DNA of 63,988 bases, the filler included, from Collodictyon triciliatum (Eukaryota): the NCBI GenBank assembly GCA_043381765.1. It is 6 parts of 6 records of this genome, joined end to end, with 100 filler letters (N's around TTAATTAATTAA, not from the genome) between each part and the next. Parts side by side here need not be neighbours in the genome. Positions count along the whole stretch, not along the records: positions 10,801 to 21,486 come from JBHJMP010002594.1; 5 more parts are not named here. One strand, 5' to 3'. Below are positions 10,701 through 53,987 of the stretch, in pieces. Below the pieces are notes generated by a model, which was given only the letters and a program-made list of their open reading frames with translations, was not told the DNA's origin and did no database searches. A program made the position numbers and the translations under genes. Position 1 is the first letter of the stretch. The number at the start of each line of letters is the position of its first letter.

Positions 10701-10800
10701 NNNNNNNNNNNNNNNNNNNNNNNNNNNNNNNNNNNNNNNNNNNNTTAATTAATTAANNNNNNNNNNNNNNNNNNNNNNNNNNNNNNNNNNNNNNNNNNNN
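10701..10800. other. Artificial scaffold spacer (44N-TTAATTAATTAA-44N)
   Basis: Six-frame stop linker between N runs; occurs 5 times in the window. Confidence 0.97.
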
Positions 10801-11120
10801 TTTTTTTGTTTTTTTGTTTTTTTGTTTTTTTGTTTTTTTGTTTTTTGATTCTGTTTAGATGTTTTGTGTTGATCAGTTTCTGGCCGCCTCGAGCAGCCCC
10901 GCACTTAAACAAAACCCACCCAACCCCTGCCGAAGATTGCAAGCACATTTTCCGACAAAAATGAGCCATAGGAAAAGATAAAAAAGAAAAAGAAAAAAGA
11001 AATCATGACACGCGGGAATTGAGAATAAAACAGCGGCAATTCGTAATAAAGTCTCCAGAGTATCCCATGGCCAAGCAGTCCTCTATTCGGCCTTATAGAA
11101 GCTGGTTGCCTCTGGCATAT

Positions 11121-13130
11121 TTATTGGCTGGGTGAGTGCTCCAGAGGTCGTTTTTGAGACATTATACGCCCAGCCTTTTCCACAAGGCATTGCCTCTGCA
11201 AGGCAAATATCTTTGAGCAGCCGTCCATACAGAGGTCCATAGCCTATATTGATGAATGAATTTAGAATTCGTTTTCAGTCGATGAAGAAAAACATATATA
11301 CTTTTCTTCTTTTTATCTTCTTTGCAAAACAGGCAGTCATTGGAAAACTTCAAAGCTTTCATATTATATTTTCGAACTCGGTCTTTTGCATCGAAACATG
11401 TTATGGAAGACGGTTGAAGATATCAGCAAAAACTGAGCAAAGTCACAGCATCTACCTCTGATATTTGCTGGGTCTCGAGAACCCCGTTCTGAACGAGCGC
11501 AGTAACCTATTTGGTGACCAAATGTAAATATTTATCAAAATTGATATGCTGCAAAGATAACATTCGCTGCATTTTTTGTGCTCCATCCACGAAAACAATG
11601 GTGAAAAATAGATAAAATAGAACCTCGTGGAGAGATGGCATCAATGCGAGGGTGAGCTGAGCTGATTTATTATGCTCCTCCATCGCGTTCGGATCCATGA
11701 CTATCGTAGAGCTGTCCAGGCATCCCTGATGTGTTCAAAAAAAAAATCTCATAATGAAATCGTTGAAAGTGTCTGAAAATGATACCATGTGTTTTACATC
11801 ATATTGCAAATTTGGATGATGAGGTATGTGATGCATTTTTTTTTTTGGCTTAATAGTGCTTTTTAGGAATGTGACATATCAAAAGACGTACCACTGAGCA
11901 TGAAGCCACAAGGTCGTATGTCTCTATTCCAGCATCAGACAAGGCAAGAGAGGCGCAGGTGATGGCGCCACTGAGAACCCCGCCGTCAGCTTGGAGTACA
12001 ACCACAAATATATCCAGAAGACACTTTGGAAACTTTTCAACCCGAACCGACGCTTGGATGGCTTGCTGGATTTGCGTCGATATTGTTTTCTCTTCATTGG
12101 TTTGATTCTGAAGAAAAGGTTTTGGAGGAACAAGAAAGAATTGAATATTAAAAAAAAAAAGCTTTTTGGGAATAATCCGATATGAAGTAATGATGAAGGG
12201 GAACATTTGCCTGTAATATCTATATGGCAGAATTGAATTGAATTGAAAAGAATGATGCGAATTCGTTACAATTCCCTTTGATTGGATAACTGACTTGGTC
12301 TTGCGCTTTCTTTCTCAATGGGCGGGCAAATGGTGCGTACGAGAACTCGCAATTGATTTTTCCAACATCACTAAAGTCATTTCCAGGTATTTGTCGAGGC
12401 CCGTATCTATTAACGTAAGAGAGAGGTAACCAAGCCTGAGTAAAGACTGGCTAATAAACTCGATTTGTTTGTCAAAGTGATTTAGTTAGATAAAAATGTT
12501 ATGGGACGCATACAGTATTTAGAAAATACTCATTATTGCACTGTGAAGTAAATACTATCATTATTCGGTTTTTTTTTAAAAAAAAGCCCTTCTTATCTAA
12601 TTACATGGAGCAAATTATTCTCGTGTTGTTGTTTTCGAAATAGGCAGAGCCTGTAGCTTGAGAGACAACTCCTGTCTTCATGACTAGGAAAGCATAGAAT
12701 TTAAAAAGAAAACCAAAGAAAAAAATTGTCTTTGTTAAGCTTCTATGCCCAGCTTTTCAAATGACTTTTCAAAATATAAAAAAAAATTAACTCTTCGACC
12801 GAATACCTTGAAGCTTTAAAATAGTAATAAAAATAATAGTAATAGTAATAAAGATAATAAAATTAAATGAAATAGTAAAAATAACAATAAATTGAACCAC
12901 AAAATACAATACAGTATGGGAGATATACGCAAAGAAAAGAGGAAGCGAAATGAAAAGATATGTCGGGTCAGCTCCTTACAAATGCTGCGTATGTGGTCTG
13001 GGCCTCTGCCGTCCAAGCGTTGATTGTTAGAGTCAAGCAGCACAGGTTTTTCTTGCTGCGAGGACAAAGACAGCGACGCTGTTCCCAAAGGTCGGCTTTC
13101 GGTTGGGCAGGTGATTGTATAGCGGCTCAT
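11121..13130 (-). CDS. Exosome complex RNase PH-like subunit, MTR3/EXOSC6 (RRP41-like) type
   Basis: Spliced: ...QRLDGRGPDHIRSI/...MKTGVVSQATGSAYFENNNTRIICS/...YGPRQIPGNDFSDVGKINCEFSYAPFA.../...VRVEKFPKCLLDIFVVVLQADGGVLSGAITCASLALSDAGIETYDLVASCSV/...VMDP.../AMDLCMDGC. RNase PH fold motifs; the subtype is less certain than the family. Confidence 0.88.
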
Positions 13131-13429
13131 CTACGTAGTTCCCTACTTTTTCTTTTTCTTTTTCTTTCTCTCTCCTTTTTCTTCTCCTTGAGCCTTAACT
13201 ACAGAACGTAGGCAGTTTATCATATTCGGAACTCTTACGTAGATGGCCGGGTCATTAACGGGAGGCAGTAATAGAGTGTGGTCTGTTTTTTCGATCACAA
13301 GCCGATCCGCTTTTGTTTCCAGTAAAAAGTCTTTCATCGCCTGATACTCCCAACTCTGTTCTCCCTGCTTCTTCTCTTGTCCTTTCTTTCATTTTTTTCT
13401 CCTTATATTTTTATTCCTTTTTTCTTTTC

Positions 13430-13540
13430 TTCTCTTTTCTTTTCTTTTCTTTTCTTTTCTTTTCTTTTCTTTTCTTTTCTTTTCTTTTCTTTTCTTTTCT
13501 TTTCTTTTCTTTTCTTTTCTTTTCTTTTCTTTTTTCTTTT
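13430..13540. repeat. (CTTTT)n repeat
   Basis: Seen directly. Confidence 0.95.
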
Positions 13541-13710
13541 CTTTTTTAAATCTTTGTTTCTCTTTTTTCTTCTTCGGACTTTCTCGATTATACATGAGAG
13601 CCATGTGTGCAACTTTATGCAGAAGCATTCTCGGCGGGTATTCAACCAGTGCGTTGTATGTGTCGCATTTGATACAGAGGCTGCGTGCTTGTGAGGCAGA
13701 GTCCAAGCGT

Positions 13711-16700
13711 CTACTTTGTGAACTTGCCGTTTGTCTTCATGAGGACACCAAAGAGGTTGAGCTCCGAAGAGGAGAATGTCGGCGTTTGACTCAGCGTAGA
13801 GCGCTGTGCTGAGGGAGACTTCGATGGCAAACTCGCCTTTGTTGGAGGTGAGCTTTTCTCCTGGCGGCGGAAAAGAATATGAGTGTTTTCGTTCAGATGG
13901 TCAAACGGTTGGGTGTGGCACAAACAGGAAGACAATGATGATGTTTCAGGGTGAGAGAGAGGGAAGGAAGGAAGGAAGGAAGGAAGAGAAAGAATCCATT
14001 TATGATGGCATTGACGTGCAACAACAGTGTAAAGGATTGGCTGTATCATGGCAAGCGAAAAAGAAAGAGGTATGTGGTTCACGGACCTCGTCTTTGAAAG
14101 AGTGATTACTCGAGCTATTCTCGCAGTTGAAGACAAAGCGCTTCATAAGTCCGGCTGAGTTGGACGGTTTACTCGGTCGGGTGTCTTTTGCTGCTTTGTT
14201 CAAATAGGAGCCAAACATGCCTGCCTGAAAGTACAAAGGAATGATTGTTAAAGAAAAACGTATCTGATGAAATCACACAAGAGACTCATATTGAAGCGCA
14301 GTTGTAACATTTCCTTCGTATTCTCGTTTGTTTGAGTCTGCACAAAAGGAGACTCATAAGTGGCTGGTTATTAGTCAAAGTGGTGTGAGGTGTTACCTTG
14401 GAGATACCCAAAGTTGAGGAAAGTGGGCTCATTTCACTTCTAAAAGAGATGCTTGTGCCTGCTAATTTCAAAGTGGGTGGTGATAGATTGAGTAATCAAA
14501 GAGAATAATATAGCTCATATGTCGAGTGGATACTTCAAGTATATCACAGGATTAAGAAGCGACGACATAGAGCGCATCTGAGCCACAAATAACAACCTCC
14601 ATTTGACGACCTGGAGTTTTCGTTGTCATAAGCTGGCTGAATCAATCCTAGTAATGAATTGCTGGCTGAATCGTCACCAAGGAGGCTTGTTTCGACAACG
14701 CCTGACTGTTATGTATAACTTAATATTTTTTTTAAAAAAAAAAAAAACAATGTGGGTCATGGCGATTTCATAGTCTTGCTCAAATAGTCATGTGAAATTA
14801 TTGCAATTGATAGTTCTGACTCACTTCATTGGCAGAGTTCTTCATTCTCTTCCGAATTCTTTTCAATCGCTTGTGTATTGATTCTGCATCTTCTCCTTCA
14901 TCTTCAGAGTCTGAAAGAAAGCTGGTGTTGCTCTCTGATAGTAAACCTGTTTGCATTTTCTCAAATCTCGCATTTCTGCGGCTCCTTCTGATTGAAAAGC
15001 GAATCATCTCCAATTCTGAAACATCTTTGGCGTCTGCTGTTATAAATGAATTGATTCTTTCCATGTCATCCATGTGCTTCTGCTCCTCCCATCGGCGATG
15101 TTCTTCAACAGCCTCTTTGTCGTGTCTTTGGTCAATATCTTCATTCTTTGCAAACATCCTTTTGTCTTCTTCTGTGGCGATTTCAGGTCTTAGCAGGTCC
15201 TCCAAATCTTTCGCATGCGTCTCCATCAAATCCTCTCCTTCCGAGTCGGAGTTTTCCCCATCTCTTACTAACTGTCGGTATTCAGCTGGGAGTGTGACCC
15301 GTTTCAAGAAGGCCTTGTCACGTTCTTCGACCTCATCGACTAGTTGGACAAGGTCACTCTCCCTATGTCCGGACACCAATCCTTGCTTTTCTGTAACGCC
15401 TATCTGCGGTTCAACGTCAAAACCATCTGCTTCATCATTAGCATTTTCGCTTTCCTCTCCACCATCCTCGCTCTCATCACTCTCAATCTCTTCTTCGCTG
15501 CTCATAGAAAGCTCATTTGAAGCATGGGCCGTATTTTCATCATGCACTGTATGAGAGAATTCAGAATTGAGATTGTCTTCCTCTTCATTTGAAATATTGC
15601 TATTCGATTGATGCTTCATCTCCGTATTCGTTTCTGGAATTGGTTCTGACACGATGACACAATCATTCACTTTGGAAAACTCAATCTTTTCAAGGTTGAT
15701 TTGCTCTGCAGCGGCGGCGTCATCTTCTTCTATAATCTCTATCCGGCGGTACTTTTTTGCCTTCATAATTGGACTCGAGCTGGTCTGCTCATCAATCGGA
15801 GTGTTAGAGATATCATCCCCAGGCTGTACAATTTGATCGGGTGTGTCATCAACTATACTCTCCTCCACATCATTTGCATCAGTCACACGCAGCAATCTCT
15901 TCTTTCCGCGAACGATGGACAAATCATGTTCCTATGTTTTCATGATCGAATGGTAAGGTTTTCTTTTTGAGACAGCACATAATGGTGTATCAGAGATATG
16001 TTCGTCACAATAATGCATCAAAGATATTAGAAAATATAATATGGAATATAATTCGTATCCTGGAGAGAGCGAATACCAATAACTCATTTCTCGTCAAGAG
16101 AACACCACTATCTACCGCATCTGGAACGCCAGAAACCGAGTCATTCGCACCATCACCTTCGTACTCATTATCTTGATCATCGTCTTCGCGAGCGTCCGAT
16201 TCCTCGCTGAAAGTTTGGCTATCGCCACTTGCTTCGCTTCCTGCGGAAACCGAATCGGCGTCATCCTCCAAGTCATTTTCCTCAAAATCTTCGTTCTCTT
16301 TTCCAAACAAAAATCCTGCATCTTGTTCATCCTGTTCGTCATTATTTCGTTTATTTCAATATACATAATAAATTATTAAGATAAGAGTGGATGTGCTCAG
16401 ATTGACTACTCATCCATTCATGTCATCCAACAACAACAAAAGCTTAATTGTATCACAATCACATCAGATGATATCTTGAAATTATAATTTTCACGGTTTG
16501 AATATAAAACAGAAGTTAAAAATGGTAAAACCTCAGACAATTCCTCGTTATCCATCTTATGCTCGTCCATCATTTCTTCCCACTCCCTCTCTCGCAAACC
16601 ATTCAACCGTTCTTTGAGATCCATTTTTACCAATTCGCGACGATTTATGTTCGAAGATAAAGCAGGCGCCACTTGTTTCAAAACTATTAATCCATTGTCC

Positions 16701-17685
16701 TGTTTCGTTTTCATGAATGTTAGTGTACAATTCATACAACCAATCCATATTTCTATATGTGAAGAAAAGTATGCAACAAAGGATTCTCTTGTGATACTAA
16801 AATTCAACAAACCTCATCTGACGCATCATTCGATTCACTTTCTGACTCTGCGAGCTCCGCCTTGAGGATATTTCCAATGCATCGGTCGTGACTCAGTTTC
16901 GGACTTTCTTTCACCTGGATGAGCTTCTCTCTTTTGTTCAAAGTAAATCGGTAAGATTATTTTCATTTTTTTCACAAATGTTGACTATCCAAATTGAGTT
17001 TTCGAATGAACTCTACCAACCACCGATACTTAATGTTTAAGATTTTGAAATCAAGAACGGCTCACAAACAATTTATGTATACAATAACTCATGAACTTCA
17101 TGTGTTATTGTGCCCATCATAATGTAGTGAACCATTTTGGAAGCAAGGAAAACAAAAACACACCTTAGTTCGATATTCTGCTTGACTTTTTCTTTCGTCC
17201 TCGCCAGAAGTTCTTTGATCGAGCTTCGCTTCACTTGGGCGGTGGGCAATTGAACATCGCTGTCTGCGCAGACAACGAATATATAAGGGTGAAGACGAAT
17301 ATTCGAGGATATCTGAGTAAGCAACACCCTCAATTTAACTGATGGGGAAAAAAACTACTCTATGTTTCAGGGAATCGATAACAACATACAAATCTGATAT
17401 AAAGGCGTCTACTATGATTAAGATAAATCTATTTAAAAAAGCCACGATAGATAAAGATACCTCTGGCCAAGCGCTCTGTTTCAAGGGCAAGCTTCTGAGT
17501 CTCTGATAATTTTGCCTGTATGTTTATTGCTTGCTTTTTTATTGTTGTTCTAATTGGTCCTTTAATAAGATAATTTTCATGGCAATTGGCCCCAAAGTCT
17601 GACAAGAAATGTTACATAAATTTTATAAAATCACCATCGAAATATGCGCAGTAGGTATTTGCTTAAGCTTGGAAACTTCCGTCAT
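13711..17685 (-). CDS. Claspin/Mrc1-like replication checkpoint mediator (multi-exon; 5' end uncertain)
   Basis: Exons give AKLSETQKLALETERLAR/DSDVQLPTAQVKRSSIKELLARTKEK, resembling the Claspin ETQRLxRES-x-x-LP motif. Also long acidic tracts, an MRC1-like segment (DLEDLL...EEHRRWEEQKHMDDMERI) and C-terminal GSYL...KRFVF. Confidence 0.6.
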
Positions 17686-17695
17686 TCTGACGTGC

Positions 17696-17737
17696 TGATA
17701 TTTATTTATTCTAGGTATATAGAATAAATAAATATCA
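17696..17737. other. Perfect 18-bp AT-rich inverted repeat with 6-nt loop
   Basis: TGATATTTATTTATTCTA-ggtata-TAGAATAAATAAATATCA; the arms are exact reverse complements. Confidence 0.9.
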
Positions 17738-17814
17738 TTTATTACGGCATTTTTATCGATGTAAATACAATTCGATTTCCCAGCCTACACGACAAAAAAT
17801 CATATCCCGAATAT

Positions 17815-18777
17815 ATGAACGAAAATAATATTGGTCATTATTATTTACCTGGAAAATTTGCCTCTGATTTTCTTACAAAGTCAAAGCTGAAAAATATATT
17901 TTCTATTTTTTTTGGAATTTCTTCTAAATCACCGCCCAACCTTCATATAAAATTTGAAAAAGAGTACAAAAAAACTGTTCAAAATATATTAAAATTGTGC
18001 ACAATACTTACTTATTTTATGTATTTGTGTCCAAGTTCAAATTACGGAATCTTGGTCGACCATATCCTGAACTATATATTTATTGATTCTTCTAGAGCTG
18101 TATTGTCAAAGTTTATTCAAAAAAATAATTGGGATAAAGGAAACTTTATAGCCCAATACACCAAATTTTGCAGACTCGTTTTCTTCTTTGTTCATTTGTA
18201 TTTTATCTTTATGGGAAAAAATATTTTTACCGAAAATCAAATCAATAACATGAACGATAAAATTTTTATTTTTATAAACACATTAAACGATTTTGTCTAC
18301 ACCATCTTTGGAAAACTATTTTACAATACACAATTATCTCTACAAAAAGAATCTCTCTTTGTCGCTTCAACTATCCTTATCGACAAGTCTATTAAAATAG
18401 CAACTACTAAATTATCCATATATCTCGCTCAAGAAACACGAAAATACGATAATAAAAATAGCGGTAATAATAACAAAAAAATAGTAAACATACACCCGAA
18501 TCAAGATTTAATTATTAATTTACCGAGCAACTCTTTTTTAAATTTTATCACAAAATCTACTTACTCTTGTGTTAATAATTTTATAATTTTTATAAATTAT
18601 ATATTTAGTTCTGGCGAATCTATTGAATATATAAGTAATATTGATGATATTATTAATAATAATCAATTCAACAATGACAACAACCCGAATAATTCATTTT
18701 TCAGTGCAATGTCCAATTTAGATGTAGATGATTCGTTTCACTCTATAAATAATAATAATTTTAATTATACATCATAA
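17815..18777 (+). CDS. Intronless hypothetical protein, 320 aa, N/I/F/K-rich
   Basis: Uninterrupted 963-bp ORF in very AT-rich DNA; no recognisable motif. Confidence 0.7.
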   Translation: MNENNIGHYYLPGKFASDFLTKSKLKNIFSIFFGISSKSPPNLHIKFEKEYKKTVQNILKLCTILTYFMYLCPSSNYGILVDHILNYIFIDSSRAVLSKFIQKNNWDKGNFIAQYTKFCRLVFFFVHLYFIFMGKNIFTENQINNMNDKIFIFINTLNDFVYTIFGKLFYNTQLSLQKESLFVASTILIDKSIKIATTKLSIYLAQETRKYDNKNSGNNNKKIVNIHPNQDLIINLPSNSFLNFITKSTYSCVNNFIIFINYIFSSGESIEYISNIDDIINNNQFNNDNNPNNSFFSAMSNLDVDDSFHSINNNNFNYTS

Positions 18778-18966
18778 ACTTTAATTTTTATGTCGCAGCA
18801 CTTATTTTATATTTTGCTTCATTACTGTGTTATTTCACTTTAATAACACATTTTATACATATTTTAAAGATACTGTCTTTTGGCCAATTTACATAGACTA
18901 CCTATTTATTTTGTTTATCAATATAAAATTAAATTATCCACTTTTTTTTATTATATATATTATATT

Positions 18967-19431
18967 ATGAGTGAACTGCCCAAATTTAAACCGCCAAAAT
19001 ACATACTACATACACCTATAGTCATTCAGCCGAATGGAACAAATCCGAGTCTCAGTCCTAAATTTCATTTTCTCAACCGGATTAATATTGCAAACAACAG
19101 AGCAATACAACTTTTATACAGAGACGCTTATCACAGACAACTATTGAAATCACAAAGAAATAATAGGCTTAGACCAAACTCTATGTCAAACTCTACTTCC
19201 AACTCTACGTCCAACTCTACGTCCAACTCTACGTCCAACTCTACGTCCAACTCTACGTCCAACTCTACGTCCAACTCTACGTCCAACTCCAGTAGAATCA
19301 ATCACAATAGCAATCGTCCACCTGTTAATTACTCGACGCCACCAAATAGCCCCCCTCCAAACAATCAGCGACTCCGTAATCCATCAAGATTTATGCTTAC
19401 CGCCCCTATGACCTATTATAGTAATAGTTAA
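18967..19431 (+). CDS. Intronless hypothetical protein, 154 aa, with NSTS repeats and a Pro/Asn-rich tail
   Basis: ATG at 18967 after TATATATATTATATT; MSELPKFKPPKYILHTP...(NSTS)n...PPNSPPPNN. The ORF-track TTG start at 18880 is less likely. Confidence 0.7.
   Translation: MSELPKFKPPKYILHTPIVIQPNGTNPSLSPKFHFLNRINIANNRAIQLLYRDAYHRQLLKSQRNNRLRPNSMSNSTSNSTSNSTSNSTSNSTSNSTSNSTSNSTSNSSRINHNSNRPPVNYSTPPNSPPPNNQRLRNPSRFMLTAPMTYYSNS
19177..19290 (+). repeat. 12-bp coding tandem repeat AACTCTACGTCC (NSTS)
   Basis: Seven perfect copies at 19201-19284 plus degenerate flanking copies. Confidence 0.95.
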
Positions 19432-19569
19432 TATAAAATTACTTTATATTTTACATCAAAATAAGTTTAGTTTATCATTTTTGTTTATTCAATTCAAAAT
19501 TATAAGTTGGTTTAATTATAATATTTATTTTCTATATGCTAAAATCATTAATAATTTATTATTATATAT

Positions 19570-20880
19570 ATGGAAACAAAAGTTTCGAGCAGGTCTAAAA
19601 TTAAATATGAAGGCAATTTAATTGGCATTGGCGGCTTCGGCGACGTTTTCCAACCTCCACTGCCCTGCAAACTCTCTGCCACAAACCACAAATTTAATAC
19701 GTACAACACCAATGAATATGTTGGCAAATGTTTTAATGATATGAAAGCCGCGCAGGCTGAATACAGATTACAGAAAAAAGTCAATAAAATCGACCCTCAT
19801 CATCTATTCACACTATGTGTTTGGCAAATATGCCCCATCACTTTATCTAAAGACCTCGCCTCTCAAATTCTTGAAAAAAACCCATATCTCGCTCAAATAC
19901 ACCCCAATGGGCCTAAATACAAGGCACAGATTATCTCTGACTACGGCGGATCTTATTTTCTCAATTCTCTGCAGGCCTCCCAACCACTTTTTGAACAATC
20001 CTCTTTCCCTAACTTATTCATACGGATTATTTTTTTTATTGAAAACATGGCCCGCATGAACCACGCTGGCCTCTTTCACTTTGATATCAAAGAAAACAAC
20101 GTCTTGTACAACTTCAATAGAAACCTTATTACAATGATCGACTACGGCTTTATCTCTCATTCCGTTAAGCAACGCATCAAACCATTTTTGTCCCCCAGAT
20201 ATATGGGCGGAGGCGTTTACAATGTACCGCCTGAAATGAGACTAATCAGCGGCATTCTTTATGAATACAAACTGTCTCACTCTCAAAAAACCAAAAATTC
20301 TCTTGACTTTAGATATGCGAATGTGGATTTAATACAACATATATTTAATAAATTATCTACCTTACCTCCACCAGCCAATATTGGAAAGACAAAGCCCGGC
20401 AAGAAATACCTTCAAATGTTTACTCGATTCTCCAAATGGTACCAAAAACCCGCTGACGATGCTATTTTTATGAATATCAATTCATCCATATATCACAAAA
20501 TTTTAAAAGCTATTCTACTATATGCTAGAAACAAAGACAAGACTCCTATCTACAACATATTTGATAAAAAAATCATGAAGCAAAGGTTTGAATCTTGGTC
20601 TATGGGATTTCTCTTATTTAACTGGTTCGTAAATATGTACTCTTACTTTAAAAAATACACTACACACAAAAAAGTTATCGAATACATGCTCGGTGTTATC
20701 TGCAACGACTTGATACAATCCGATGTCTCTAAACGCCTCTCCATGCCGCAGTTCTTTAACAAAATTAACTCTTTCCTCAAACAAAATCATCCGACTCTTT
20801 ATAAAGAATGCAAAATCTTTTCTAGACAAACCAAAAAAATGCACTCTCAAATGGAGTGGTGCACTCATACAAAGTCGTAA
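19570..20880 (+). CDS. Intronless Ser/Thr protein kinase, giant-virus (NCLDV)-type
   Basis: Gly loop LIGIGGFGDVFQPPLPC, VGK lysine, AEY glutamate, KIDP, HFDIKENN catalytic loop, IDYG, VPPE, ESWSMG. Confidence 0.9.
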   Translation: METKVSSRSKIKYEGNLIGIGGFGDVFQPPLPCKLSATNHKFNTYNTNEYVGKCFNDMKAAQAEYRLQKKVNKIDPHHLFTLCVWQICPITLSKDLASQILEKNPYLAQIHPNGPKYKAQIISDYGGSYFLNSLQASQPLFEQSSFPNLFIRIIFFIENMARMNHAGLFHFDIKENNVLYNFNRNLITMIDYGFISHSVKQRIKPFLSPRYMGGGVYNVPPEMRLISGILYEYKLSHSQKTKNSLDFRYANVDLIQHIFNKLSTLPPPANIGKTKPGKKYLQMFTRFSKWYQKPADDAIFMNINSSIYHKILKAILLYARNKDKTPIYNIFDKKIMKQRFESWSMGFLLFNWFVNMYSYFKKYTTHKKVIEYMLGVICNDLIQSDVSKRLSMPQFFNKINSFLKQNHPTLYKECKIFSRQTKKMHSQMEWCTHTKS

Positions 20881-20923
20881 TTTATTCACGTTTATAATTT
20901 AAAGATTGCTTCATTTTTAAATT

Positions 20924-21430
20924 ATGGCCAACTTTTTTTATTCTATTTTTAATTCTTTTTTTAAAAGAGAAACCAATATACAAGAAAATAATGAAAAAAC
21001 CAATGAACAAATACGATATGATGAAATAATGAATGAGAAAATACTAAATGAGCAAATTAAAAACGAACAAATTCAATATGAGAAAATTAGATATGAGCGT
21101 ATACGAAATGAGCGAATCAAAAACGAACAAATTAGAAATGAGCGTATAAGAAACGAACAAATACAAAGTGAACTAATAAGAAACGAACAAATACAAAGTG
21201 AACTAATAAGAAACGAACAAATACAAAGTGAACTAATAAGAAACGAACAAATACGAAACGAGCAAATACAAAACGAACAAATACGAAATGAACTGGAGCT
21301 GATTTGCAGTAAAGATAATGAAAAAGAATTTTTTTTGCAAAATAGTATTTATAAAAAAATAAATTACAAAGAATTAATCGATACCACCGGTATGCGCGGA
21401 ACTGAAATTTTCATTTTTAACAAATACTAG
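20924..21430 (+). CDS. Intronless hypothetical protein, 168 aa, with (R/K)NEQI pentapeptide repeats
   Basis: Open 507-bp ORF with repeated NEQI/NERI/SELI units; its TAG lies within the CTAG of the Helitron-like end. Confidence 0.7.
   Translation: MANFFYSIFNSFFKRETNIQENNEKTNEQIRYDEIMNEKILNEQIKNEQIQYEKIRYERIRNERIKNEQIRNERIRNEQIQSELIRNEQIQSELIRNEQIQSELIRNEQIRNEQIQNEQIRNELELICSKDNEKEFFLQNSIYKKINYKELIDTTGMRGTEIFIFNKY
21151..21240 (+). repeat. 30-bp coding tandem repeat x3 (NEQIQSELIR)
   Basis: AAACGAACAAATACAAAGTGAACTAATAAG, three exact copies. Confidence 0.95.
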
Positions 21431-21486
21431 CCGTGGTGCCCGTGCTTCGCACAGGGAAAAGAAAAAAAAGAAAAAAAAGAAAAAAA
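21427..21486 (-). mobile_element. Helitron-like 3' terminus; element body runs rightward into the scaffold end
   Basis: Minus strand reads CCCTGTGCGAAGCACGGG-CACCACGG-CTAG|T: GC-rich hairpin, 8-nt spacer, CTAG, then T. Confidence 0.7.
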
Positions 21487-21586
21487 NNNNNNNNNNNNNN
21501 NNNNNNNNNNNNNNNNNNNNNNNNNNNNNNTTAATTAATTAANNNNNNNNNNNNNNNNNNNNNNNNNNNNNNNNNNNNNNNNNNNN
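21487..21586. other. Artificial scaffold spacer
   Basis: 44N-TTAATTAATTAA-44N. Confidence 0.97.
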
Positions 21587-21755: not shown

Positions 21756-22870
21756 ATGGGCGCAACATCGTCAGTGAGCAGAGGCCAGCAGCGCCAACGA
21801 GGGCGGGAGCGGGAGCTCGACTTAGAGGCAGAGCAAGCGCGAGCGGCGCGGCAAAGAGTTTCAGAGCAGGAGCAGGAGTTGGAGGCCGAGCGCCGAGTCA
21901 TGCGACGCCTGATTGCAACTGCCCAGCAGCCGTCAAGCGGCCGAGCCTTTGCAGGGTCGGGCCAAAGACCAGACATTCTGGAAGGCAGCCGCGCTCTTTC
22001 GGCCCGACTCGAGCCGCTGCCCACGTCCTTTATGATTGGACAGTCGCCGGAGTCTGTGGCTGCGGCTGCAGCTGCGATGGGATTCCCATTCCCTTCGGCC
22101 TTGGCTGCGATTGCCGATGCTGCAAATCACCAGGGAGCCGCAAGTGCCGAGTTGGTGCTGTCTTCACCCCCACATCCTTCTCTGGCTTCTGCCGCATCTG
22201 CCCAACACGCCATCGGCAGTATCGGGATGCAGCCTCTCGATGGCCGCCACAACTTCTACTTCGCCACTCCGACACGGGTGGGCTTTGGTGGGGATGCCTT
22301 TCCTTGCAACAGCAGATACGGCGTGAAAAGTCAAAACAGATGACACACATAAATGGCGATAGTGATCGTCATAATTATTTTTTCCCTTTATTCGAATGAT
22401 TGTCATAATCTTAACAAAAAAAGAGGCTGTTTTGTGGATTTTGTGATTGGTCCATTAGATTTCTTGTATTTTTTTATTTTATATTGTGTAATGAGTTAAT
22501 ATAAAACACGTTTACAATAGAGTTTAAGGAGGACGGCTTATGGAGTAACTTGCCTCTGAATCTTGTGATATTCATCCCGTCGAGTCCGACATTCGAAATA
22601 CGCGCCGTCTCAGAGAGGCTTTTGCAACACCTCGAATCGCAGCACACGAGGGTTTACACAGAAGGTGATTGCGAGCGGCTGGAGCCAACAGATGCGGAGT
22701 GTGTCATTTGCCACGAGGTCTTTGCGCCTGGTCATCAAGTTTGTCACTTGCCTTCCTGCGCTCATCACTTCCACATGTCCTGCATTCGGCCGTGGCTGCA
22801 ACGCAGCAATACCTGCCCACTTTGTCGCTGTGTGGCTATTCGACCGGCCGGGTCGTCTTCGTCCCCCTGA
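21756..22870 (+). CDS. RING-H2 E3 ubiquitin ligase, probably N-myristoylated (2 exons)
   Basis: Starts MGATSS. Exon 2 has CVICHEVF...LPSCAHHFHMSCIRPWLQRSNTCPLCR (C3H2C3). The intron donor position is uncertain. Confidence 0.85.
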
Positions 22871-30067: not shown

Positions 30068-32110
30068 TCAAGCGAAGCTCAATCGGTACTTTCCAAAGGC
30101 ACCAGTATAGTAACTTGATTCAACTTGGCTTCTGTCCCATAAAACATACCATGCATCTCTTTGACTGTCATACGGGCGAGTCAGAGTGCCAGTTCCACCT
30201 ACACCACCATCTTCGAGGCCCGCGTTCCAGTCTTTTCCTCGACGAACTTTCAGTCCAATTTCTCCACTTTCGGGTGTGACCGGGTCACCTGCCTTCGGCT
30301 TCGGTCTTTTGCTTTTTATCTTGCTTCCGCTGGTACTAGGTTGAGATTTAGTCTCTTGTAGCTCTTCCAATCTACGCTGTAGTTTCATAGTGTCCACTTC
30401 AAACTCTTTAAGGCGCTGAGAAAGATCTTTGTTGCCCTCCTGCTCCTTATGGATGATAGCTCTCAAACCATCCATTCTCGAGATGAGCTCGTTGTTTCGC
30501 TCTTCCAATTCTCTAATCTTTCTAATGTGACCTTCGCATACTGCATTTGTATCACTTCGGGATTGCTTGGGTGAATTATCATCTGCTCGTTCTTGCTTTA
30601 ATTGGGATAGCATGGCATGACTTTGATTTACTATTACGTCTCGGGAAGAGTTCAATCCAAAGCTCTGCTGATCTCCGACATCGATGGAATCATCCACTTT
30701 GAGACCCAATATCTTGTCAATGAACAAATTGGCCTTGAAAAGTTTTGTAGGAACATGAAATGAATCCAGAATTGATTCCCCTTCCTCCATCAGATTCATT
30801 CCATATTGAAGCATGTTCGATAACATGTTTATCTTTGTTCTTAGTATCTCCACCGGTCTATATATTTGAGCAGAGTCTGCGACAACCTTGTTTGAAATAT
30901 AAAAATATCATGATCAATTAGTCACTTTGAATCGAATAGCGGGGAAATACAATATCATAATCCATTAGTCTTGCTGGAGAAGTTTGCAGTTGACTGCAAG
31001 GTGTTCTTGAAGAATAAGAGACAAAAAGAGACTCATTTACCTTGTTGATCATGTCTTCTTCCAATTGGTCAATGCGCTGTCTTATATCTCCAAAGAAAGA
31101 GCGAACATGGGATATTTCGCTGACTTCGAAATCACAAATCTAGTACATACACATCATAGTATCATACCAGCTCATGAAAAGACACTAAAACCTTTTAAAG
31201 TTTTTTTAGAGTTGAATATGCAAACAAACAAACAAACAAACAAACAAACAAACAAACAAACAAACAAACAAACAAACAAACAAAGGGATGAAAAGTGTTA
31301 CTTTCGCCCTCAACTTTTCTACTTTTGAAGAAACACGTTCGAGGCTATCATCTTTCTCCTTCACGGCACGAGTATAGTGTTTTAGTCTTTTAAGAGTCGC
31401 CTGCACATCAGCTATTTTCTCATGCTTATGACTACGATTCACAAGCCGGTCAGCTAATTCACAATCCTCACATAACTCTGCACATGGCCAGCAAGTAGTA
31501 CAAACACTGACGATGGGTTTATCATGTATTATACAAACAGATGGATCCAAGCCCTTGGGAATCACCTGATCATCTTCCATAAGATATCTTTTTTTGTGCA
31601 AAATTTATATTCATTATTCGTATTAGTATTGAAGTAAGATGACCAATTGGCCATCAGATACGACTCACAAAGAAGTCGATTCATTAAAGTGCGATGACAA
31701 GCAAAGCCCAAATCCAAAGGAATATCGCCAATTCCACTCATCATGTATGAAATAAGCACTTACATGGTCTGATGCGATTTTTCATGAGACGTCGAGGGTT
31801 TTTCAAGACAGGCAGAGCACAGAGCCCCGCAGCCACTTTCGCACATAACTTGAGCGATGCTGCGTCTACACACAACACACGCTTGATAATCGGCGCGCAA
31901 AGGCAGCTGCAGAAGCGTTGCGTGGTATTCTGTATTTGTGGAAACACACACTCGTGGGCCGCATAGCAGGCAGGTGTTTTTGCTGAGGCCGCTTTCGGCG
32001 TGCGAGCTAAGCAGATTGGCGCAGCCCGAGCAAAGAGTGTGTCCACAAAGCGGCTGATCCGCCTGGACTGGGCTAATCAGGCAGGCTGGGCATATTCTCT
32101 CGCAGTCCAT
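30068..32110 (-). CDS. TRIM-like RING/B-box/B-box/coiled-coil protein with C-terminal MIB/HERC2 domain
   Basis: CPAC...CGHTLCSGC...CLLC (RING); CVVC...CESGCGALCSAC...H..SH (B-box); CIIH...CTTC...LCEDC...H.H (B-box); coiled coil; IGLKVRRGKDWNAGLEDGGVGGTGT...VLWD...YYTGAFGKYRL (MIB/HERC2). Confidence 0.8.
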
Positions 32111-32173
32111 GGCCGGCTGATTCCCACCTGGAGGTGTCACGGTTAAAGTTGAACCAAAGAATGAGGCATGTAT

Positions 32174-32175
32174 GA

Positions 32176-32271
<96 letters not shown>

Positions 32272-32272
32272 A
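32174..32272. repeat. (GAAA)n repeat at scaffold end
   Basis: Seen directly. Confidence 0.95.
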
Positions 32273-32372
32273 NNNNNNNNNNNNNNNNNNNNNNNNNNNN
32301 NNNNNNNNNNNNNNNNTTAATTAATTAANNNNNNNNNNNNNNNNNNNNNNNNNNNNNNNNNNNNNNNNNNNN
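32273..32372. other. Artificial scaffold spacer
   Basis: 44N-TTAATTAATTAA-44N. Confidence 0.97.
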
Positions 32373-43052: not shown

Positions 43053-43152
43053 NNNNNNNNNNNNNNNNNNNNNNNNNNNNNNNNNNNNNNNNNNNNTTAA
43101 TTAATTAANNNNNNNNNNNNNNNNNNNNNNNNNNNNNNNNNNNNNNNNNNNN
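43053..43152. other. Artificial scaffold spacer
   Basis: 44N-TTAATTAATTAA-44N. Confidence 0.97.
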
Positions 43153-53887: not shown

Positions 53888-53987
53888 NNNNNNNNNNNNN
53901 NNNNNNNNNNNNNNNNNNNNNNNNNNNNNNNTTAATTAATTAANNNNNNNNNNNNNNNNNNNNNNNNNNNNNNNNNNNNNNNNNNNN
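53888..53987. other. Artificial scaffold spacer
   Basis: 44N-TTAATTAATTAA-44N. Confidence 0.97.

Follow-up and report, generated by a model that had tools for sequence, protein, structure and literature searches.

How did a compact block of genes resembling those of giant viruses come to stand beside spliced eukaryotic genes in an assembly of the eukaryote Collodictyon triciliatum (GCA_043381765.1), and does it reside in the nuclear DNA of this organism? The block lies within a 63,988-base stretch of DNA, hereafter the window, which is the whole stretch that was analysed. An earlier note on this DNA had described positions 17696-21430 as a candidate endogenous fragment of a virus of the Nucleocytoviricota. 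We find that positions 17738-21424 are a foreign fragment of giant-virus affinity, that its borders can be placed to the base, and that both of its outer genes are cut by these borders. With modest confidence, we favour the explanation that the fragment represents a very recent, dead-on-arrival capture of giant-virus DNA in nuclear DNA by end joining. The principal competing explanation is a false join between host DNA and the DNA of a free virus.

A foreign fragment delimited by environmental virus DNA

Among the matches listed for positions 14500-21486, the best came from freshwater, sediment, lake and estuary metagenomes (20 entries from 11 studies, with a word share of at most 0.31). Contigs of four metagenome runs from four studies (X1, X2, X3 and X6; freshwater, sediment and estuary) were aligned to 14000-21486, and the sole span covered by contigs in all four runs was 17738-21424, at an identity of about 99.8%. 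Mismatches in the listed contig pieces came to 4 of 1955 nt for X1 and 4 of 1459 nt for X2, the latter count leaving out one 430-nt piece with 32 differences (record 12) that represents a more distant strain. The depth of the viral contigs in the metagenomes was 2-5x. Over the host part at 14000-17499, depth was 0 in all 14 bins of runs X1 and X2, and runs X3 and X6 held nothing within 14000-17737 beyond low-complexity pieces of about 35 nt.

The metagenome contigs also reveal how the virus continues where the fragment ends. At the left border, one X1 contig extends 91 letters upstream of 17738 with sequence unlike that of the window. At the right border, contigs of X1 and X2 continue past 21424 with letters that are identical to each other and unlike the window. 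Both continuations encode protein parts that are missing from the fragment: the left one encodes ...KSLSATF, as in P0014, a relative of the first open reading frame (ORF), and the right one, in X1 and X2 alike, encodes DCSKFLL..., as in P0017, a homologue of the fourth. Because these continuations encode exactly what the homologous proteins carry at the corresponding points, the foreign fragment can be equated with 17738-21424.

The consequences for the two outer genes are evident from their homologues. ORF1 has three relatives of 361-373 amino acids (aa), namely P0014 (367 aa, 99%), P0015 (75%) and P0016 (59%), all of which begin 24 residues ahead of the first matching residue in the window. 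The ATG at 17815, which the earlier note had taken as the start of this gene, is an internal Met of the 367-aa protein, and the loose end of the X1 contig encodes the end of the missing part. No Pfam or NCBIfam family and no ESM Atlas match was found for ORF1, and its AF2 model (pLDDT 37.5) yields no usable fold. Run X1 additionally contains a variant joint that omits 17998-18751, which is most of ORF1.

At the opposite end, the ORF4 homologue P0017 is a 278-aa protein of 77% identity that carries a NUDIX domain (PF00293) at residues 153-254, with a score of 41.6 bits that is above the Pfam cut-off. The window copy of ORF4 stops at about P0017 residue 162, ahead of the Nudix box, and the catalytic domain is lost. 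Moreover, its last codon (Tyr) and its TAG stop are supplied by the right flank rather than by viral sequence. The domain with its Nudix box is present in P0017 and not in the window copy, which, as predicted from its sequence, cannot be an enzyme. Viral Nudix hydrolases include those of the mRNA-decapping type in poxviruses, African swine fever virus and mimiviruses. ORF4 resembles these proteins through the domain of its full-length homologue, and differs from them in that the window copy ends where the domain starts. No described counterpart was found for its N-terminal region of 15-nt/5-aa repeats.

Two joints in one contig: capture or chimera

The fragment sits at the 3ʹ end of a contig (10801-21486) that has no internal N. 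To its left are 6.9 kb of DNA with spliced genes; to its right are 62 nt of non-viral, partly low-complexity sequence, after which the contig ends. The continuity with a host gene that the earlier note had reported, with no N gap, therefore holds on the left side only. Host continuity is demonstrable on the left alone because the contig stops 56 nt after the ORF4 stop.

The left joint is marked by a perfect palindrome (Table 1), such that 18 nt of host sequence are repeated, perfectly and in inverted orientation, right beside the foreign DNA. The right arm of this palindrome ends on the final non-viral base, and the metagenome match begins with the following base, 17738. Judging from this one joint, the right arm (17720-17737) is a candidate for snap-back templated filler copied from the adjacent host sequence. 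We also considered whether the palindrome could be a hairpin terminus of the virus, and rejected this idea: in X1 the virus continues past this point, which moreover falls within a gene. The right flank comprises a GC-rich 27-mer and a purine microsatellite in addition to the last two codons of ORF4. The 27-mer occurs once in the window, and searches of GTDB genome contigs (for exact matches) and of plasmids did not find it elsewhere. The microsatellite is of the repeat kind at which the host contigs of the window typically end.

If the fragment is indeed integrated, its most likely history is as follows. An uncultured freshwater giant virus (Nucleocytoviricota, Imitervirales-like) would have left DNA in the cell through infection, abortive infection or uptake, and 3,687 bp of its genome, a random piece, would have been captured at a chromosomal double-strand break. 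Homology-independent end joining would then have sealed the piece, leaving snap-back templated filler of the polymerase-theta type at the left joint. Such an insert would have been dead on arrival, with both outer genes cut by its borders, and would not be a working gene cluster. On this account, ORF2 and the kinase gene that follows it are whole only because decay has not yet had time to set in. We infer that the joints exist in the chromosome of the organism and that a repair pathway of this kind produced them.

This sequence of events has precedents in other systems. The portions of PMC8395108, PMC9299229 and PMC5508229 that were consulted here describe filler DNA where foreign DNA has integrated at random, and the part played by polymerase theta. 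According to these portions, end-joining integration of Agrobacterium transfer DNA (T-DNA) or of transfected DNA resembles the present case in that there is no homology at the joint, the incoming ends are lost, and a short templated insertion from adjacent sequence is present. The present case differs in that the pathway would be deduced from a single joint. Giant viruses are not mentioned in the same portions of the ten such papers listed.

Several observations argue for capture. Both joints reside within a single gap-free contig, the right flank ends in a host-like purine microsatellite, and the last base of the 18-nt inverted repeat coincides with the left joint. The contig also follows non-viral sequence at both ends though the virus itself continues, which would be unexpected if free-virus reads were abundant.

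A different set of observations weighs against capture. The best-matching metagenomes hold the viral part only, and an identity of about 99.8% to environmental virus DNA is also what would be expected of a contaminant. Both joints are blunt and lack microhomology, as in ligation chimeras, and palindromic joints also arise as amplification or fold-back artefacts. The right flank amounts to just 62 nt, half of it of low complexity, and no hallmark giant-virus gene is found within the 3.7 kb. Finally, loose contig ends occur in the metagenomes inside the fragment as well, and by themselves are insufficient to set its borders.

Blunt joints without microhomology, a palindrome at the joint and a short right flank would also fit the principal competing explanation, in which a contaminating or infecting freshwater giant virus contributed 3.7 kb that were falsely joined to host DNA in the assembly or the library, with nothing integrated. 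We hold this to be a real possibility, if one that falls well short of probable. Several studies of fresh water and sediment have recovered nearly identical virus DNA in the absence of this host, the fragment lies at a contig end, and the assembly is fragmentary, consisting here of pieces of about 10.7 kb and N gaps. However, such a chimera needs two independent false joins within one gap-free contig, and the joints have no repeat in common that could mislead an assembler. Virus reads sufficient to build 3.7 kb should, moreover, have extended the contig as virus at either end, and the right flank instead resembles host microsatellite DNA.

If capture is accepted, it would have been very recent. 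The signs expected of residence in the host, which are divergence, decay and host-like composition, were not found: the identity to environmental DNA is about 99.8%, the inner ORFs are intact, and the GC content is 0.306 for the fragment versus 0.393 for the left flank. A more specific proposal is that a eukaryote has been caught just after capturing DNA from a freshwater giant virus that is in circulation to this day, the insert being about 99.8% identical to its donor. Blunt joints and the 18-nt snap-back filler would then point to theta-type end joining with no viral integrase. This proposal is put forward tentatively, as one that may be correct.

A divergent kinase of giant-virus type

The virus assignment is carried by the third gene, which encodes a divergent Ser/Thr protein kinase of 436 aa. 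Its score against Pfam Pkinase, 25.8 bits, is under the cut-off of 31.7, and yet all the expected motifs are present: GIGGFG (Gly loop), K53, E64, HFDIKENN, DYG (for DFG), PPE (for APE) and R389. From these motifs, the protein is predicted to be a catalytically complete kinase. Its AF2 model (pLDDT 90.5, pTM 0.91), together with the kinase-fold matches that this model returns, places it in the eukaryotic-type kinase superfamily.

Searches with this protein lead to giant viruses and not to cells. Among the ESM Atlas matches listed, all neighbours of the kinase are labelled ‘Viruses 100%’, with Nucleocytoviricota the commonest and with scores of 0.97-0.99. The top Foldseek matches in BFVD are Pyramimonas orientalis virus (E 9.8e-12), a Megaviridae sample, CeV-01B and ChoanoV1, whereas the best Foldseek matches in PDB are CK2/PRPF4B at E of about 4e-6 (best 3.7e-6). 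When the kinase profile was compared with PDB sequences, the match was limited to the catalytic loop (E of about 6e-4). The kinase is thus closest to giant viruses, and the Imitervirales-like type that the earlier note had ascribed to it agrees with its best structural neighbours, the kinases of Pyramimonas orientalis virus, CeV and ChoanoV1.

The likeness to these Imitervirales kinases (Pyramimonas orientalis virus 01B, A0A7M3UNF2; Chrysochromulina ericina virus, A0A0N9QJ87; ChoanoV1, A0A5B8IQ96) consists of a shared kinase fold whose C-terminal side carries additional helices, at target-normalised template-modelling (TM) scores of 0.48-0.69. Sequence identity, in contrast, is merely 13-18%, and the window kinase differs by its DYG in place of DFG, by its sub-cut-off Pkinase score, and by a close family that is tiny and entirely environmental. 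That close family comprises six matches of 43-92% identity. A metagenome contig scan made with it returned a single locus of 1,717 nt (L001), with 93.8% nucleotide identity over 19483-20952, and GTDB genome contigs contained no relative. More distant strains, at about 90-94% nucleotide identity, occur alongside the strain of about 99.8% identity in the same metagenomes (19673-20272; X2 record 12; X3 records 18, 19 and 21).

A wider family is readily detected. With the close-family profile, 1328 relatives were found at E ≤ 1e-3 in a set of 1.84 billion representatives, and an IMG/VR scan with 14 kinase relatives gave 197 confirmed cases of 598 stretches, from which 80 loci were kept. The contigs that carry these loci reach 573 kb in length and in many cases bear the name GVMAG, and the profile of the window family matches ORFs on 62 of the 80 (best E 4.9e-21). 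On the one distant-relative record searched for it, Capsid_NCLDV was found at 56.3 bits, above the cut-off. The window kinase also shares with the giant-virus family the N-terminal motif G-x-[YF]-G-x-V-F-x-P-P-[LI]-P-C. Within that family (P0018-P0164), the conserved form is G-x-Y-G-C-V-F-x-P-P-[LI]-[PK]-C, which places two near-invariant cysteines beside the Gly-rich loop, and many of the 1328 relatives show the form G-x-Y-G-C-V-F-x-P-P-L-P-C.

Viral origin, as the earlier note had proposed, is therefore supported, and more strongly than the sequence alone could show, by the identity of about 99.8% to metagenome DNA that lacks the host flank, by the wide occurrence of the kinase family on giant-virus contigs, by the Imitervirales kinases among its structural neighbours, and by the Nudix hydrolase affinity of ORF4. 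For the kinase, the assignment to giant viruses of Imitervirales-like type is well supported. ORF1 and ORF2 have no relatives that are informative on viral affinity. The note was also right that no core marker of the nucleocytoplasmic large DNA viruses (NCLDV) is present: no match to major capsid protein, PolB, A32 ATPase or VLTF3 was found in any of the four ORFs.

The missing markers leave some room for a donor that was a smaller element with giant-virus-like genes, such as a polinton-like virus, a virophage, a transpoviron or a plasmid, although we consider this improbable. It would fit the absence of capsid, PolB and packaging ATPase genes from the fragment, and the close relatives all reside on contigs of 1.7-10 kb, except for a kinase of 43% identity whose contig measures 48 kb. 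Likewise, IMG/VR scans with the window kinase, with its close family and with its three next-closest relatives (P0018, P0026 and P0022) found no counterpart. Against such a donor stand the long contigs of the wider kinase family, including the one with an NCLDV capsid gene, and the Atlas and BFVD neighbours, which are giant viruses. Kinase and Nudix genes are a common giant-virus pairing, and on one IMG/VR locus (L061) a Nudix relative was found together with a kinase relative. Short contigs also fit the low depth of 2-5x.

Gene content, composition and the question of selection

The four co-oriented plus-strand ORFs that the earlier note had listed are present, at 17815-18777 (320 aa), 18967-19431 (154 aa), 19570-20880 (436 aa) and 20924-21430 (168 aa). 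They are separated, as described there, by short spacers (189, 138 and 43 nt, with a GC content of 0.12-0.20), and two tandem repeats lie inside them, one of 12 nt x 9.4 (19177-19289) and one of 15 nt x 19.5 (21002-21293). A TA-rich run before every ATG had also been noted, and is found ahead of ORF2, the kinase gene and ORF4, but not ahead of the first ATG (17815). No relative of ORF2 was found on the 80 IMG/VR loci, and ORF2 and ORF4 gave just low-complexity chance matches against Pfam and NCBIfam.

Of the claim that the ORFs are intact, what remains is that ORF2 and the kinase gene are whole; ORF1 and ORF4 are cut by the fragment borders. The suggestion that the ORFs might be under selection has to be given up: with a divergence of about 0.2% from the free virus, the intactness of the inner ORFs is uninformative on selection. 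Because the fragment is near-identical to a circulating virus, no time has yet passed for selection or decay to show.

Base composition had been offered as a further mark of foreign origin. The fragment is richer in AT than the left flank, but its composition is not exceptional, since several 1-kb host segments have a GC content of 0.27-0.30. The tetranucleotide correlation between the fragment and the rest of the window is 0.863, compared with 0.921 +/- 0.045 for 95 host segments (z = -1.3), and 13 of these 95 are equally low or lower. Composition by itself does not mark the fragment because this z value makes it no outlier.

A native, lineage-specific intronless host cluster, or a transfer that was domesticated long ago and maintained by selection, would accommodate the two open ORFs, the kinase with all of its catalytic motifs and the unexceptional tetranucleotide make-up, but is very improbable, being contradicted by metagenome DNA of about 99.8% identity that lacks the neighbouring host DNA and has other flanks, and by outer genes that are truncated relative to their homologues.

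Host DNA and other features of the window

The locus had been described as part of a protist scaffold. The window is, however, not a single scaffold: it is a chain of unrelated contigs of about 10.7 kb, joined by five linkers (N44-TTAATTAATTAA-N44) that are about 10.8 kb apart. Any feature or synteny read across these linkers is spurious. The coordinates of the main features are collected in Table 1.

Table 1. Features of the fragment-bearing contig and of the window that contains it
Feature	Position	Strand	Description
Linkers N44-TTAATTAATTAA-N44	10701-10800, 21487-21586, 32273-32372, 43053-43152, 53888-53987		n=5; identical; artificial
Eukaryotic (host) part of contig	10801-17695		Spliced minus-strand genes and purine/pyrimidine microsatellites
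Perfect palindrome	17696-17737		18-nt arms (17696-17713 and 17720-17737), 6-nt loop, 100% complementarity
Giant-virus fragment, 3,687 bp	17738-21424	+	Metagenome contig cover, border continuations, GC 0.306
ORF1 remnant	17738-18777	+	First 24 codons missing relative to homologues; function unassigned
ORF2, intact, 154 aa	18967-19431	+	Low-complexity, (NSTS)n repeat at 19177-19289; near-identical metagenome cover at 18975-19184
Ser/Thr protein kinase, divergent, intact, 436 aa	19570-20880	+	Motifs, AF2 model, giant-virus relatives
ORF4 remnant	20924-21424	+	N-terminal 167 codons of a Nudix hydrolase, repeat region 21002-21293; P0017 homology
Right flank, non-viral, 62 nt	21425-21486		Tyr codon and TAG, GC-rich 27-mer, then (AAAAGAAAA)x3.3 to contig end

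The intron-rich host neighbour mentioned in the earlier note is confirmed by the spliced eukaryotic genes to the left of the ORFs. An example is the C-terminal half of RNase_PH (profile positions 68-130 of 130), which was found in a single open, exon-like piece at 11850-12110 on the minus strand with 53.3 bits. The source genome carries RNase PH, RING and MIB_HERC2 genes, and its introns are rich in pyrimidine tracts. An Rfam search over the entire window gave 0 matches.

Purine/pyrimidine microsatellites such as (TTTTTTTG)x5.8, (TTTTC)x25 and (AAAAGAAAA)x3.3 are abundant in the host contigs, which tend to end there; sites include 10801-10846, 13420-13545 and 21457-21486 as well as other contig ends. 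Of purine/pyrimidine tracts of at least 25 nt, there are 23 in the window and 0 in the viral fragment.

Two further contig regions illustrate the character of the source genome. The product of a spliced minus-strand gene at 30068-32272 combines a weakly matching RING finger (16.3 bits) and a MIB_HERC2 domain (35.6 bits) with a coiled coil and a B-box-like stretch rich in cysteine. This amounts to a TRIM-like architecture, and makes ‘protist’ an uncertain label for the source organism. In the contig next to that of the fragment, an open frame of 65% GC at 21756-22343 adjoins AT-rich DNA, and a RING-H2 finger exon is present at 22550-22870. These latter two regions indicate a strong contrast in composition between exons and introns in the source genome.

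Relation to known viral insertions

Giant-virus insertions in eukaryotic genomes are well documented, and the category itself is not new. Green algae, for example, harbour giant endogenous viral elements. One of these, in Chlamydomonas, spans 617 kb according to the consulted part of bioRxiv 10.1101/2024.09.03.611062. At 3,687 bp, the present fragment falls outside the size class of such elements, which is tens to hundreds of kb. As stated in the portion of bioRxiv 10.1101/2025.04.19.649669 used here, Nucleocytoviricota regions in eukaryotic assemblies have been catalogued in very large numbers, and those without mobility genes are read as accidental insertions. The region described here may already be in the supplementary lists of that work.

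The fragment resembles these catalogued regions, as that portion presents them, in that giant-virus genes are contiguous with cellular genes, and its lack of an integrase or other mobility gene fits the view that such insertions are mainly accidental. It is unlike them in being tiny (3.7 kb, four genes and no hallmark gene), in lacking decay while remaining about 99.8% identical to a virus that is still circulating, and in having borders that are mapped to the base and that both cut genes. What is unusual, then, is that public metagenomes allow the population of the donor virus to be identified, that the borders are known at base level, and that a joint bears a repair signature.

If the joints are not real, the locus serves as a warning that, in a fragmentary assembly, contaminant virus DNA can be flanked by host sequence and look integrated. 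If they are real, it shows cleanly how endogenisation starts, before decay sets in, and offers a base-resolved view of giant-virus DNA entering nuclear genomes. The locus would then also name the cell entered by an otherwise hostless environmental giant virus, and so tie an uncultured Imitervirales-like virus directly and physically to the cell that it enters.

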